This document shows, one piece after another, positions 4,340 to 41,085 of a stretch of DNA of 64,000 nt (position 1 is the stretch's first letter; every line of letters starts with the position of its first letter). Below the pieces are notes generated by a model, which saw only the letters and a list, made by a program, of their open reading frames with translations, did not search any database and was not told where the DNA came from. The translations under genes and the position numbers were made by a program. Source of the stretch: Enterobacteria phage P922; the sequence record OR999189.1, one strand, 5' to 3'.

Positions 4340-4422
4340 GTTCATTATGGTGGTGTTTTGTTTGGTTAATTAGTATTCCATTAATTTGTTTAACATTTAC
4401 TTTTGTAATGAGGTTATTATGA
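4336..4422 (+). CDS. tiny hydrophobic peptide (28 aa)
   Basis: ATGA overlap with upstream ORF; W/C/F-rich; hand-translated, not in ORF track. Confidence 0.25.
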   Translation: MSSLWWCFVWLISIPLICLTFTFVMRLL

Positions 4423-4517
4423 AAATTTTGAATTCTGTACTTATTGCTTGTGCGTGGTGGGTTGCACAGGTTTCAGCGGTAGTAGTTGGTATTCACATTT
4501 ATTACGAATATTTTTAA
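4419..4517 (+). CDS. tiny hydrophobic peptide (32 aa)
   Basis: GAGG SD, start overlaps previous stop; single predicted TM segment. Confidence 0.3.
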   Translation: MKILNSVLIACAWWVAQVSAVVVGIHIYYEYF

Positions 4518-4519
4518 AA

Positions 4520-4560
4520 AAAGTTGTTTACAAGACTGTTCTTCCGTGGTACTATTACCC
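4520..4560 (+). promoter_or_regulatory. T4-type early promoter
   Basis: AAAAAAAGTTGTTTACAAG...GTGGTACTATTACCCTATCAACT. Confidence 0.5.
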
Positions 4561-4583
4561 TATCAACTACGGAGGAACAGAAA

Positions 4584-4697
4584 ATGAAAAAGATTGTTAA
4601 AGCTATATGGAATGTAGTTATAATACTAGTAGTTTTGAGTATATTCCTAATCGTTTTAATGATTGATGTATTAAACGCTTACTTTGGATTTATGTGA
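4584..4697 (+). CDS. small membrane peptide (37 aa)
   Basis: GGAGGAACAGAAAATG start; hydrophobic core. Confidence 0.35.
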   Translation: MKKIVKAIWNVVIILVVLSIFLIVLMIDVLNAYFGFM

Positions 4698-4704
4698 GGA
4701 AAAT

Positions 4705-9469: not shown

Positions 9470-9671
9470 TTCAAAATCCGATTATTTTAATTCTCTCAAC
9501 GATAAAGATAAAAATCTAATACGGCATTTTATTGTTGAGATGGGATATACCGATACACGCGATTTAAGAGAACATATATTTGAATGTGGTGTAGCTAAAA
9601 AGTTTTCATTCACATGCAAATGTTTAAGAGAGGTAATTCAGCACTATGAACAATTTAGTCGCAAAGCATAA
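9453..9671 (+). CDS. hypothetical protein (72 aa from TTG; 43 aa if first ATG is used)
   Basis: track start is TTG; first in-frame ATG is 87 nt downstream; start uncertain. Confidence 0.3.
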   Translation: MAREINSKSDYFNSLNDKDKNLIRHFIVEMGYTDTRDLREHIFECGVAKKFSFTCKCLREVIQHYEQFSRKA

Positions 9672-9754
9672 TTTTAATAAAGCTTCTGTTCATAAGGATA
9701 AGAAGAAAGCGTTTAAAGAATCTAATCGCAAACAGAAACATAAGGGGAAGGTCT

Positions 9755-39848: not shown

Positions 39849-40184
39849 ATGTCTGAAGTACAACAGCTACCAATTCGTGCTGTCGGTGAATATGTTATTT
39901 TAGTTTCTGAACCTGCGCAAGCCGGTGATGAAGAAGTTACAGAATCAGGACTTATTATCGGTAAACGTGTTCAAGGTGAAGTTCCTGAACTGTGTGTAGT
40001 TCACTCCGTTGGTCCTGATGTTCCTGAAGGTTTCTGCGAAGTTGGTGATTTGACTTCTCTTCCAGTTGGTCAAATTCGAAACGTTCCGCATCCTTTTGTA
40101 GCTCTGGGACTTAAGCAGCCAAAAGAAATTAAACAAAAATTCGTTACCTGTCACTATAAAGCTATTCCGTGTCTTTATAAGTGA
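39849..40184 (+). CDS. 31: gp31 co-chaperonin (GroES homologue)
   Basis: 111 aa; same length and position as T4 gp31. Confidence 0.85.
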
Positions 40185-40331: not shown

Positions 40332-40580
40332 ATGATTAAACAATTACAACACGCTCTTGAACTGCAACGAAACGCATGGAATAATGGTCACGAAAACTAT
40401 GGCGCATCTATTGATGTTGAAGCCGAAGCTCTTGAAATCCTGCGTTATTTCAAACATCTGAATCCTGCTCAAACTGCATTAGCTGCTGAGCTTCAGGAAA
40501 AAGATGAACTTAAATATGCTAAGCCTTTGGCTTCTGCCGCACGAAAAGCAGTTCGTCACTTTGTGGTAACACTGAAGTAA
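40332..40580 (+). CDS. rIII: rIII lysis inhibition accessory protein
   Basis: 82 aa, same as T4 RIII; position next to 31. Confidence 0.8.
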   Translation: MIKQLQHALELQRNAWNNGHENYGASIDVEAEALEILRYFKHLNPAQTALAAELQEKDELKYAKPLASAARKAVRHFVVTLK

Positions 40581-40818
40581 TTTATTGGAGATTCACTGCC
40601 TTAGTGTGAGCTAAAATCGAGGAGCCGTCGAACTGTCTGATTAATGATTTGCGAATCATTATAGTTTTAAGACCCCGACAGTTTTACGGTGTACCTCTTG
40701 AATGTTGACGAGGTTTATGGTTATCCTGTCGGTAAATATTCAAAACCTAAGTACCCCTTGAGGGCTTTCGCAGGCAATGCCAATAAGTCCTGCATTTTCA
40801 TTTAAAAGAGAATTTATA

Positions 40819-40995
40819 ATGGCAAAACAAGCTAAAGCAAAGAAAGCAGTTGAAAAGAAAGTTGGTGATTCTAAACGCGCTGGCTACAAGCGTGGGTCGA
40901 ACTCTCGTATCAATCAAACTGTTGAGAAGATCATGCGCCGAGCACGTGCGGTTCTTCGAGATGATGCTTCTCGTTTTGGTAAGCAGAAAGCATAA
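40819..40995 (+). CDS. small basic protein (58 aa)
   Basis: AAAAGAGAATTTATAATG start; Lys/Arg-rich. Confidence 0.4.
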   Translation: MAKQAKAKKAVEKKVGDSKRAGYKRGSNSRINQTVEKIMRRARAVLRDDASRFGKQKA

Positions 40996-40998
40996 GTT

Positions 40999-41029
40999 GA
41001 GGACTCCTTCGGGAGTCCTTTTTTATTTT
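40999..41029 (+). terminator. rho-independent terminator
   Basis: GGACTCC-TTCG-GGAGTCC followed by TTTTTTATTTT. Confidence 0.65.
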
Positions 41030-41044
41030 CCAAAGATTGCACAA

Positions 41045-41085
41045 AGTTGTTTACAGTATGGTTCCTTTGTGATAGTATTATCTTA
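41045..41085 (+). promoter_or_regulatory. T4-type early promoter
   Basis: GTTGTTTACAGTATGGTTCCTTTGTGATAGTATTATCTTACA. Confidence 0.5.

Follow-up and report, generated by a model that had tools for sequence, protein, structure and literature searches.

The question raised by this locus is what lies between the genes rIII and 30.9 of the T4-type phages. The window analysed here is a 64,000-nt stretch of Enterobacteria phage P922 (OR999189.1), a T4-type (Tequatrovirus) genome segment, and all coordinates refer to the whole of this stretch on one strand. In the window, rIII is followed by 238 bases without an open reading frame (ORF), after which the gene 30.9 begins. The same spacer is present in T4 with a length of 244 nt (T4 130,558-130,801). 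Although few genomes have been annotated as thoroughly as that of T4, the stretch is without annotation there. No paper describing the spacer was found in the literature searched, and it is not mentioned in a T4 dRNA-seq/NAD-cap preprint or the supplement to it, nor in a T4 omics paper or in reviews. The original prediction, which was made from the sequence alone, described an ORF-free gap of about 240 nt between rIII and the next ORF, and this holds exactly, with the rIII stop ending at 40580 and the 30.9 ATG starting at 40819. The accompanying statement that this is the longest gene-free stretch on the early strand was not confirmed. A crude scan for ATG-initiated ORFs of ≥45 aa on both strands reveals longer ORF-poor intervals at 4340-4704 and 9470-9754, both of which are without an Rfam match at the gathering score. 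The comparative analysis reported here makes a small phage RNA, so far unrecognised, the most likely product of the gap. Its core is a pseudoknot designated module D.

The gap was found by blastn in 773 phage records. For the comparison, 54 distinct rIII–30.9 spacers were collected from Tequatro-, Mosig-, Dhaka-, Gelderland-, Karam-, Jiaoda- and Moonvirus and from related phages. Module D is present in all 54 of them. Its strands follow one another in the order S1-5′, S2-5′, S1-3′, S2-3′, as in an H-type pseudoknot, and both helices show compensatory changes, with four double-changed pairs in each. Stem S1 is paired in 89.6% and stem S2 in 77% of the alignment cells. Among 33 distinct sequences the covariation score of D is 0.387, compared with 0.153 ± 0.018 in shuffled alignments (0 of 500 reach the observed value) and at most 0.13 when the pairing partners are slid; the double-change cells number 73 versus 32 in the shuffles. 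The pair 10-32 is AU in 16 sequences, UA in 16 and GC in one, the pair 11-31 is CG in 23, GC in seven and UA in three, and the pair 21-50 is GC in 24 and AU in nine. The unpaired nucleotides GUU, UAUC, CGU(U/A)AA and the A-run are nearly invariant across the sequences. A covariance model built for D matches the 64-kb window only once, at 40701-40756 (67.2 bits, E = 1e-12). The pseudoknot is a structure maintained by selection, and it is an undescribed family among the small structured phage non-coding RNAs and pseudoknot elements.

Taken alone, the sequence of the gap is only mildly unusual. Its minimum free energy is -61.6 kcal/mol (z = -2.2). Perfect 8-bp hairpins are about twice as frequent in the window as in dinucleotide shuffles (28 versus 12.4 ± 4.4); the shuffles predict about 0.05 such hairpins per 238 nt, and the gap contains one. 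It is the comparison with relatives that is decisive for regarding the gap as more than chance. Between the window and Dhakavirus or Yersinia phages, module B of the spacer is 97-98% and module D about 90% identical, whereas the third codon positions of the neighbouring rIII gene are only 64-66% identical. G.U pairs are abundant in the proposed helices: in alignment numbering, 9-80 and 15-74 are G.U in 24 of 24 sequences and 21-68 is U.G in 14. Since such pairs fit the + strand only, the RNA is encoded on the + strand. The covariation, the strand-specific G.U pairs and a nucleotide conservation far above that of synonymous sites support the assignment of the gap as a structured non-coding RNA element that is not a gene.

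The absence of a coding function agrees with the original prediction, according to which no ORF with a credible start fits the gap. Several records annotate ORFs of 25-50 aa in it, and a 19-codon ATG ORF (40703-40762), whose + frame is open in T4-type phages, at first seemed conserved because -1/+1 indels in T4 compensate each other. This candidate was rejected, as were the other ORFs, which were considered on both strands: in Merlin and Mineola a stop ends the 19-codon frame after 5-10 codons, and Karamvirus-type spacers lack its start. No reading frame is shared across the genera, as indels break every one, including 1-nt indels within D between the window and T4, and no consistent Shine-Dalgarno (SD) sequence precedes the frames. 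Five ORF peptides other than the 19-codon one, three of them encoded in the gap and two corresponding to annotations in relatives, found no family match in PHROG. The substitutions are compensatory in helices and are not 3-periodic. As regards a signal acting at the DNA level, such as a promoter, an origin or an endonuclease site, the G.U pairs point instead to an RNA of the + strand, and a consensus scan of the gap found no promoter-like site. Thus, the frame-breaking indels, the lack of a conserved ORF and the missing PHROG matches show that the gap is not coding, and a small protein gene, a decayed pseudogene or a DNA-level signal has hardly any probability left as an explanation.

The gap does not correspond to any known RNA family in the searches performed. 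The Rfam scan that had been suggested for it was run against Rfam 15 and gave no match inside 40581-40818 at E-values up to 10. The longer spacer variants of relatives, with X or the 50-nt hairpin described below, gave none either, the distant contigs gave nothing relevant, and the window as a whole has none at the gathering score. The sub-threshold matches at 40951-41034 (Atu_C8 with 31 bits, Phe_leader) correspond to the strong intrinsic terminator located after 30.9. ARAGORN was run on the spacers of T4, KNP5, SV76, JS98 and YenM_P8 and called neither a tRNA nor a tmRNA. A group I or group II intron remnant was considered for the architecture of an insert within a loop; it was ruled out by the lack of a model match and by the permutation of the modules between genera.

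The covariation analysis, likewise suggested at the outset, confirmed that the gap is a structured RNA conserved in relatives, and it led to a fold different from the one first drawn. All sequence features of the original prediction lie where they had been placed: TAATGATT-TGCG-AATCATTA at 40642-40661, CCGACAG at 40675-40681 with CTGTCGG at 40726-40732, and ACCTC at 40693-40697 with GAGGT at 40710-40714. In an alignment of 24 T4-type sequences, the earlier and the new fold models were compared. The local 8-bp hairpin stands, being paired in 99.5% of the cells and having two compensatory pairs. The long-range pairing of CCGACAG with CTGTCGG is not supported. It is paired in 83% of the cells and breaks exactly where its strands covary with other partners: GACAG covaries with CUGUC at 40632-40636, and the CUGUC of CTGTCGG covaries with GAC(G)AGG at 40707-40713. 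The third element, ACCTC with GAGGT, is pairable in 100% of the sequences, but it never covaries and its 3′ strand is the 5′ strand of stem S1; the CCUC of ACCUC can pair equally well with GAGG at 40619-22. Apart from the local hairpin, the earlier fold is therefore largely wrong by comparison. The new model pairs 98.9% of the cells with six pairs changed on both sides, while slid controls reach 27-59%. The double-changed pairs comprise one G-C to A-U exchange in helix B1 with G.U and A.C intermediates, two C-G to U-A exchanges in B2, two pairs in B3 and one in S1. An independent run of RNAalifold recovered hairpin A, the helices B0-B3 and S1. The features of the locus are listed in Table 1.

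Table 1. Features of the rIII–30.9 locus in the coordinates of the window
Feature	Position	Strand	Description
gene 31	39849-40184	+	
rIII	40332-40580	+	stop codon 40578-40580
ORF-free spacer rIII–30.9	40581-40818	+	238 bases
GGAG motif	40587-40590	+	just 3′ of the rIII stop; second GGAG at 40621-40624 inside helix B0/B1
module A	40593-40609	+	small hairpin UCAC.GC / GU.GUGA, loop CUUA
module B	40616-40697	+	interrupted 17-bp helix B0+B1+B2, enclosing hairpin B3 and a conserved UUUUAAGACCCC strand
helix B0	40619-22 with 40694-97	+	
helix B1	40624-28 with 40686-90	+	
helix B2	40630-37 with 40677-84	+	
hairpin B3	40642-49 with 40654-61	+	8-bp hairpin of the original prediction
junction	40698-40706	+	UUGAAUGUU; empty state in the window
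module D	40701-40756	+	~50-nt H-type pseudoknot, universal core of the spacer
stem S1	40707-09 + 40711-13 with 40725-27 + 40728-30	+	G40710 bulged
stem S2	40719-22 with 40744-47	+	possible extension U40715/U40716 to G40751/A40750
near-invariant unpaired nucleotides of D	40713-15; 40722-25; 40730-37; 40742-45	+	GUU; UAUC; CG.UAAAU; A-run
module E	40755-40764	+	small hairpin CCC-UUGA-GGG, then conserved CUU(U/G)CG
module F	40770-40793	+	hairpin GCAGG/CCUGC, conserved 14-nt loop CAAUGCCAAUAAGU, then U-rich run
SD hairpin	40794-40813	+	AUUUUC/GAGAAU; sequesters the 30.9 SD sequence GAGAA (40808-40812)
gene 30.9	40819-40995	+	ATG 40819; 58-aa Lys/Arg-rich protein; downstream neighbour of the spacer
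intrinsic terminator after 30.9	40999-41020	+	GAGGACUCC-UUCG-GGAGUCCUU, then U-run
early-type promoter	41050-41078		between the 30.9 terminator and 30.8
gene 30.8		+	downstream of the promoter 41050-41078

The modules surrounding D vary from lineage to lineage. The lengths of the spacers range from 120 to 416 nt and fall into the classes 120, 238-245, 262-297 and 352-398 nt. In T4-type phages the modules are arranged in the order A, B, an optional insert (nothing, a 50-nt hairpin or a domain designated X), D, E and F. In Jiaodavirus the order is hairpin, D, A, X, E and a long F, and in Moonvirus it is X, D, E and F. Karamvirus spacers have E, which stands upstream of D there, followed by X or a hairpin, D, sometimes A, and a terminator-like hairpin. 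JoYop-type Tequatrovirus spacers consist of D, E and F only. Module A occurs in Tequatro-, Mosig-, Gelderland-, Jiaoda- and Karamvirus spacers at differing positions, and its stem covaries: pair 15-28 is AU in seven and GC in five sequences, pair 13-30 is UA or UG, and pair 18-26 is GU, AU or GC. Module B is found only in T4-, Mosig-, Dhaka- and Yersinia-type phages, is truncated in Gelderlandvirus and is absent from the JoYop type; because of this restriction it is considered dispensable. An exact 17-mer scan for module B matched mostly unrelated GC-rich phages. The stem of module E changes to CCCU/AGGG, GCCU/AGGC or CCUC/GAGG in the relatives designated L007, L075 and L050, respectively. Module F of Gelderlandvirus retains the loop (CAGUGUCAAUAAGA) on a different stem, AACUGG/CCAGUU, and a G.U variant occurs in L065. 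RNAalifold offers an alternative pairing for F, GGGCUU with AAGUCC, which is weakened in Gelderlandvirus.

The junction between B and D is occupied in relatives by nothing, by a 6-nt filler (T4), by a hairpin of 50-57 nt, or by the ~135-nt domain X within an insert of 150-159 nt. Since these states alternate at the same place, the junction is regarded as a hot spot of insertion and deletion. The 50-57-nt hairpin is seen at 1326-1375 of L003 (SV76) and in the Mosig- and Dhakavirus sequences L027-L029 and L061-L063; it has the form UACUAUCA...UGGUGGUA and contains a UAAGUC strand and, further inside, a CAGA/UCUG stem. The motif (A/U)UAAG(A/U)C recurs on the 3′ side of loops in module B (40666-40672), in module F (40783-40789), in the 50-nt hairpin and in the Karamvirus terminator-like hairpin (examples in L031, L058 and L003). 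The sharing of this strand suggests a common motif to which a protein or an RNA might bind.

The position of D in front of 30.9 raises the main rival explanation, namely that the spacer is a cis-acting leader of this gene. According to it, D and the hairpins would form a translational operator or a ribosome standby site that binds, for example, the ribosomal protein S1, gp30.9 or RIII, and would in this way determine the amount of gp30.9 made from the polycistronic mRNA. Several observations favour such a leader. In T-even-type phages, 30.9 is always preceded by D. A hairpin sequestering the SD sequence by pairing it with a pyrimidine stretch on its 5′ side exists in every genus, and its sequence differs among them (UCUCC/GGA(A)GA, AUUCU/AGAAU, CCUC/GAGG). 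The product of 30.9 is small, very basic and highly conserved, and RIII binds protein S1 (PMC9409239). Precedents are known in T4 as well: gene 32 has a pseudoknot operator, and the SD sequences of e, soc, 49 and I-TevI are masked by hairpins (PMC3014915). The gene 32 pseudoknot of T4, T2 and RB69, an autogenous operator, is the known element closest to D by topology and host, being an H-type pseudoknot in a T-even early/middle mRNA, 5′ of a gene for a nucleic-acid-binding protein. Like D, it is followed by an A/U-rich sequence of the UUAAA type (PMC3014915). It lies at a fixed distance of about 67 nt from the AUG and nucleates cooperative binding over the ribosome-binding site. D, however, is found 4 to ~280 nt from the rIII stop and ~65 to ~290 nt from the 30.9 AUG, in a permuted module order and with E, F, A or X intervening in place of an unstructured A/U-rich tract. 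It has no apparent sequence similarity to the gene 32 operator and also occurs without any downstream gene. A comparable geometry is known from tisB, in which a pseudoknot located ~100 nt 5′ of a sequestered ribosome-binding site is essential for S1-dependent standby translation (PMC7708055). The geometry of this pseudoknot, in the +42 mRNA, resembles that of D and the masked 30.9 SD, but tisB is an E. coli type I toxin mRNA without homology to the spacer, and D also exists without a downstream ribosome-binding site. Furthermore, the loops of D do not contain the GGA/ACA motifs reported for S1-selected pseudoknots (PMC1702504).

Two further findings bear on the cis-acting leader. In a 162-kb phage (L087, IMG/VR 2706796796; ~1750-1900), 30.9 is cut down to ~15 N-terminal codons fused to unrelated sequence, and the terminator-like hairpin is nevertheless intact, as are the modules E, D and A. 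D also occurs in tRNA arrays of other phages that contain neither 30.9 nor rIII, as described below. We therefore regard an operator or standby site for 30.9 as a possibility to be taken seriously but as rather improbable. A regulatory role for the downstream 30.x genes, which the original prediction had offered as one option, is neither shown nor excluded by the data, and we would give it a minor chance. The reading as a leader and the reading as a small RNA are not exclusive, since the SD hairpin may regulate 30.9 and D may do something else.

The long helix of module B and the hairpins around it are relevant to a second alternative, in which the spacer is a region of RNA processing or stability. 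Helix B and the hairpins would then be sites of cleavage or protection for enzymes of the RNase III or RNase E type or for RegB, and they would uncouple the rIII and 30.9 messages or shield the rIII 3′ end. Module B forms a 17-bp helix with single-nucleotide bulges, and the intercistronic RNase III sites of other phages resemble a helix of this type. The spacer also has two GGAG motifs, which are weak sequence-based candidates for RegB sites, a U-run after F and, in Karamvirus-type spacers, a terminator-like hairpin before the SD sequence. The contexts of the GGAG motifs fit RegB poorly. The RegB/S1 consensus is a single-stranded 11-nt GGAGRAYARAA (PMC1702504); GGAGAUUCACU and GGAGCCGUCGA each match few of its positions 5-11, the second motif is part of helix B0/B1, and Mosigvirus-type relatives have GGUG in place of the first. 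Module F, with a stem of 5 bp, is not called a terminator because its 14-nt loop is too long. The consensus scan detected no terminator-like site on the + strand of the gap, and its single terminator-like call lies on the minus strand; the terminator recognised nearby is the one after 30.9. The absence or truncation of B in several lineages also speaks against a processing region, a mere nuclease barrier would not need the strictly conserved unpaired nucleotides in D and in the loop of F, and D recurs in tRNA arrays. A processing or stability region is thus unlikely to be the function of the spacer.

To find D beyond the T-even phages, viral, genome and metagenome collections were scanned with a pattern, and the matches were filtered with the D covariance model. 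Copies of D were obtained from several unrelated phage contigs in which no homologues of rIII or 30.9 were found. In L214, D (58.5 bits) is placed exactly between tRNA-Asp and tRNA-Pro in an array of 12 tRNAs. In L306 it has tRNA-Gly and tRNA-Thr as neighbours within an array of 10 tRNAs, and in L230/L317 it abuts tRNA-Met directly on the 3′ side. In L214, L230 and L306 the called tRNAs flank D and none covers it. The copies of D within or beside tRNA arrays have the same orientation as the tRNA genes. In the Vibrio phage 501E54-1, D follows tRNA-Gly and tRNA-Ile in an ORF-poor region of 0.9 kb, and in L223 it is located ~220 nt after tRNA-Ile in an ORF-poor stretch. L368/L384 and L337 have a co-oriented tRNA 0.85-1.2 kb from D. 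The copy of D in L322 is bracketed by a sigma-70-like promoter and a terminator-like hairpin. The far copies preserve S1 and S2 with new sequences such as GAGG(A)UG/CA(C)CUC and CUAUGUU/AACAUAG, and the pooled set of 43 D sequences is paired in 84.8% of the cells, compared with at most 53% for slid partners. The free position of D in the spacers, its retention in L087 and its occurrence without rIII and 30.9, in tRNA arrays or in a promoter–terminator unit of its own, show that D is autonomous and not tied to 30.9. Of the three options named in the original prediction, a small RNA, a processed leader or a regulatory element, it is the small RNA that gains the most support from the free-standing pseudoknots.

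Two observations were made alongside the scans. The marine and low-GC copies of D (L223 ~1270-1350, L368, L390, L337, L243 ~2255-2300) have a common upstream element, ...CCUGUAAUAAGGUCGAG.CC...GGUAA..., which holds the motif AUAAGGUC and may be a second co-travelling module. In the metagenomic T4-like contig L088 (IMG/VR 3300045988_074297; ~1290-1640), a whole T4-type spacer is located inside a tRNA gene cluster. Here the ATG of 30.9 is fused to rIII codons ~55-82, and a 13-nt direct repeat, TTTATTGGAGATT, flanks the spacer and covers the first 7 nt of the next tRNA-Gln-like gene. This arrangement looks like the excision of a circle and its re-insertion, or like a chimeric assembly.

By setting, the known elements closest to D are T4 rnaC and rnaD (species 1 and 2) of the tRNA cluster. 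They are likewise small structured non-coding phage RNAs of unknown function, which are co-transcribed and processed with tRNAs, and a tRNA array is also where D occurs in phages outside the T-even group. Unlike them, the T4-type D is located in an mRNA spacer about 60 kb from the tRNA cluster. When the T4 tRNA region was searched with the covariance model of D and with nhmmer profiles made from the spacer and from X, there was no match. A similarity seen by eye (GUUCCC..GAG..UUGCG) had suggested that the spacer or X might be homologous to rnaC/rnaD, but it is not significant and the idea was rejected.

The neighbourhood of tRNA genes is also where a self-cleaving ribozyme would have to be considered. 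D could be a small pistol-like or theta-like ribozyme, or the remnant of one, that cuts the transcript or trims the neighbouring tRNAs. In favour of this are the compact pseudoknot fold of D, the near-invariance of its unpaired nucleotides, the invariant G with which S1 opens and, in some phages, a place beside tRNA 3′ ends. The P1 stem, the pseudoknot and the GUUAAAUA linker of the pistol ribozyme presumably resemble D, a lead for which the Rfam model gave no match. In topology the likeness holds for S1 and S2, without implying homology. The pistol ribozyme (RF02679; PMC4604425), which is frequent in phages, has a hairpin loop that forms a pseudoknot with downstream sequence and an A-rich linker after P1. 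Its P2 and P3 helices, the 2-nt GU cleavage junction and the 10 conserved nucleotides were not found in D, and the tRNA-array copies leave no room for P2/P3 and a cleavage site, since in L214 the tRNAs bound D with at most 10 nt to spare. Theta ribozymes, the known elements closest to D by neighbourhood, are minimal HDV-like pseudoknotted RNAs whose cleavage site abuts phage tRNAs (PMC10879173). Like D, they measure ~50-60 nt, have a pseudoknot topology and lie beside Caudoviricetes tRNAs, many of them being located in non-coding regions and co-oriented with their neighbours. In contrast to the HDV-like fold, a nested double pseudoknot (P1, P1.1, P2, P3, an optional P4, and the catalytic C in J4/2), D consists of two stems and does not have P3, L3, P1.1 or a conserved candidate catalytic C; in Merlin, L3 is C-free (AUAUAAAAAAC). 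P3/L3 is not possible in D because the loop of S1 comprises only 11 nt, which are used by S2. The distance from the tRNA end to the start of stem S1 is 6-10 nt in L230 and L214 and amounts to hundreds of nucleotides in L223 and L243, which is beyond the ≤5 nt that define theta ribozymes. Even at E-values up to 10, a search with the 111-nt sequence gave no Rfam match to pistol, HDV-like or other ribozymes. A self-cleaving ribozyme, or the remnant of one, is very unlikely as an explanation of D.

A riboswitch has even less in its favour. It would have D, or X in relatives, as aptamer and F with the SD hairpin as expression platform. The H-type pseudoknot with A-rich loops is a fold known from several small aptamers, the loop nucleotides of D are conserved, and terminator-like and SD hairpins follow downstream. 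No known class matches, however, neither the spacing nor the order of aptamer and platform is conserved, and D lies between tRNAs without a downstream gene. We consider a riboswitch to be highly improbable.

Some relatives contain a second elaborate RNA domain in the spacer. Module X is an RNA domain of ~135 nt closed by the covarying helix P1. It is absent from the window and from T4. In many Tequatro- and Dhakavirus genomes it separates B from D as an insert, and it also occurs in Jiaoda-, Moon- and Karamvirus spacers. X lies at ~725-885 in L004 (KIT06), ~1325-1485 in L002 (KNP5), ~695-845 in L006 (JS98) and ~895-1040 in L033 (Mineola). It was found in 408 phage records, with 91-95% identity across genera. 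Its model has 41 pairs, of which 23 are double-changed, with 94.3% of the cells paired and a covariation score of 0.336 versus 0.139. A kissing loop GAUGG/CCAUC, which covaries to AAUGA/UCAUU and UAUGG/CCAUA, and a hairpin with a GNRA tetraloop are features of a type seen in ribozymes and riboswitches. X has no Rfam match and is a candidate for a new non-coding RNA with a complex fold. In the Klebsiella phage vB_KpnM_17-11 (MW239157; L036 ~975-1125), a segment of ~150 bp covering the 3′ half of X together with E and F has the opposite orientation to that in Mineola, a close relative of this phage. The inversion is either real and destroys X, or an assembly artefact.

On the basis of these results we propose that the gap is a cassette of RNA modules that fold independently and are under selection, built around an autonomous small non-coding RNA domain, D, and that the T-even copy is released from the 31–rIII–30.9 transcript and acts on a conserved partner. 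For this proposal as a whole we see about an even chance. The spacer would be transcribed on the + strand along with rIII and 30.9, so that D would be carried in the polycistronic 31–rIII–30.9 transcript and probably be cut out of it. The copies in tRNA arrays would be released by the tRNA-processing enzymes. Once released, D may use its invariant loops to bind a conserved partner, for which the tRNA-processing or the translation machinery is the most plausible source. The other parts of the cassette, namely module B, the hairpins A, E and F and the SD hairpin, would be accessory modules that vary among lineages.

Several points weigh against this proposal. The literature search gave no RNA-seq, transcript-end or abundance data for the spacer. 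In every T-even-type genome examined, D sits between rIII and 30.9, 5′ of the SD-sequestering hairpin, as a cis-acting leader would. Module B, about one third of the gap, is restricted to certain lineages and missing even from some Tequatrovirus (JoYop). The link to tRNAs rests on ~11 distinct copies outside the T-even phages, seven of which have a co-oriented tRNA within 1.3 kb and three of which abut or are enclosed by tRNAs, and four short contigs with D contain no tRNA. The pattern used for the scans was derived from the T-even consensus, and the scans of the collections are for this reason biased and incomplete. The E-values of the covariance model are rough, the weakest far match having 29.9 bits.

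A possible partner of the spacer RNA is the neighbouring gene 30.9. Its product has 24 residues that are invariant over eight genera. It belongs to no Pfam family, has no relative in the PDB, and its PHROG family is of unknown function. In PV390659, MZ170040, OQ689735, OR352951 and ON229909, gp30.9 is labelled as a '1,4-alpha-glucan (glycogen) branching enzyme, GH-13-type'. Given the lack of a Pfam family and of a PDB relative and the PHROG family of unknown function, this label is evidently an artefact of an annotation pipeline.

The outcome of this work is a structure model backed by covariation, together with a target for mutation in the form of the stems S1 and S2 of the 50-nt pseudoknot. 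Natural 'knock-outs' and 'insertions' are also at hand: JoYop does not have A and B, the window and T4 do not have X, and one genome has lost most of 30.9. The occurrence of D connects the spacer to the phage tRNA arrays, in which the function of accessory RNAs such as T4 rnaC and rnaD is a long-standing question. GOLLD and ROOL are further accessory RNAs of phage tRNA arrays. We tentatively suggest, as a conceivable though less than probable extension, that D and X are the founding members of a family of small phage RNAs, so far undescribed, that act in trans and travel with tRNA arrays. If this is true, D and X may be mimics or decoys of the tRNA machinery, small ribozymes or anti-defence RNAs, and T4 would all along have held an unannotated functional non-coding RNA between rIII and 30.9. 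According to a review of post-transcriptional control in T4 from 2010, functional characterisation had not been achieved for any riboswitch or trans-acting regulatory RNA of this phage.

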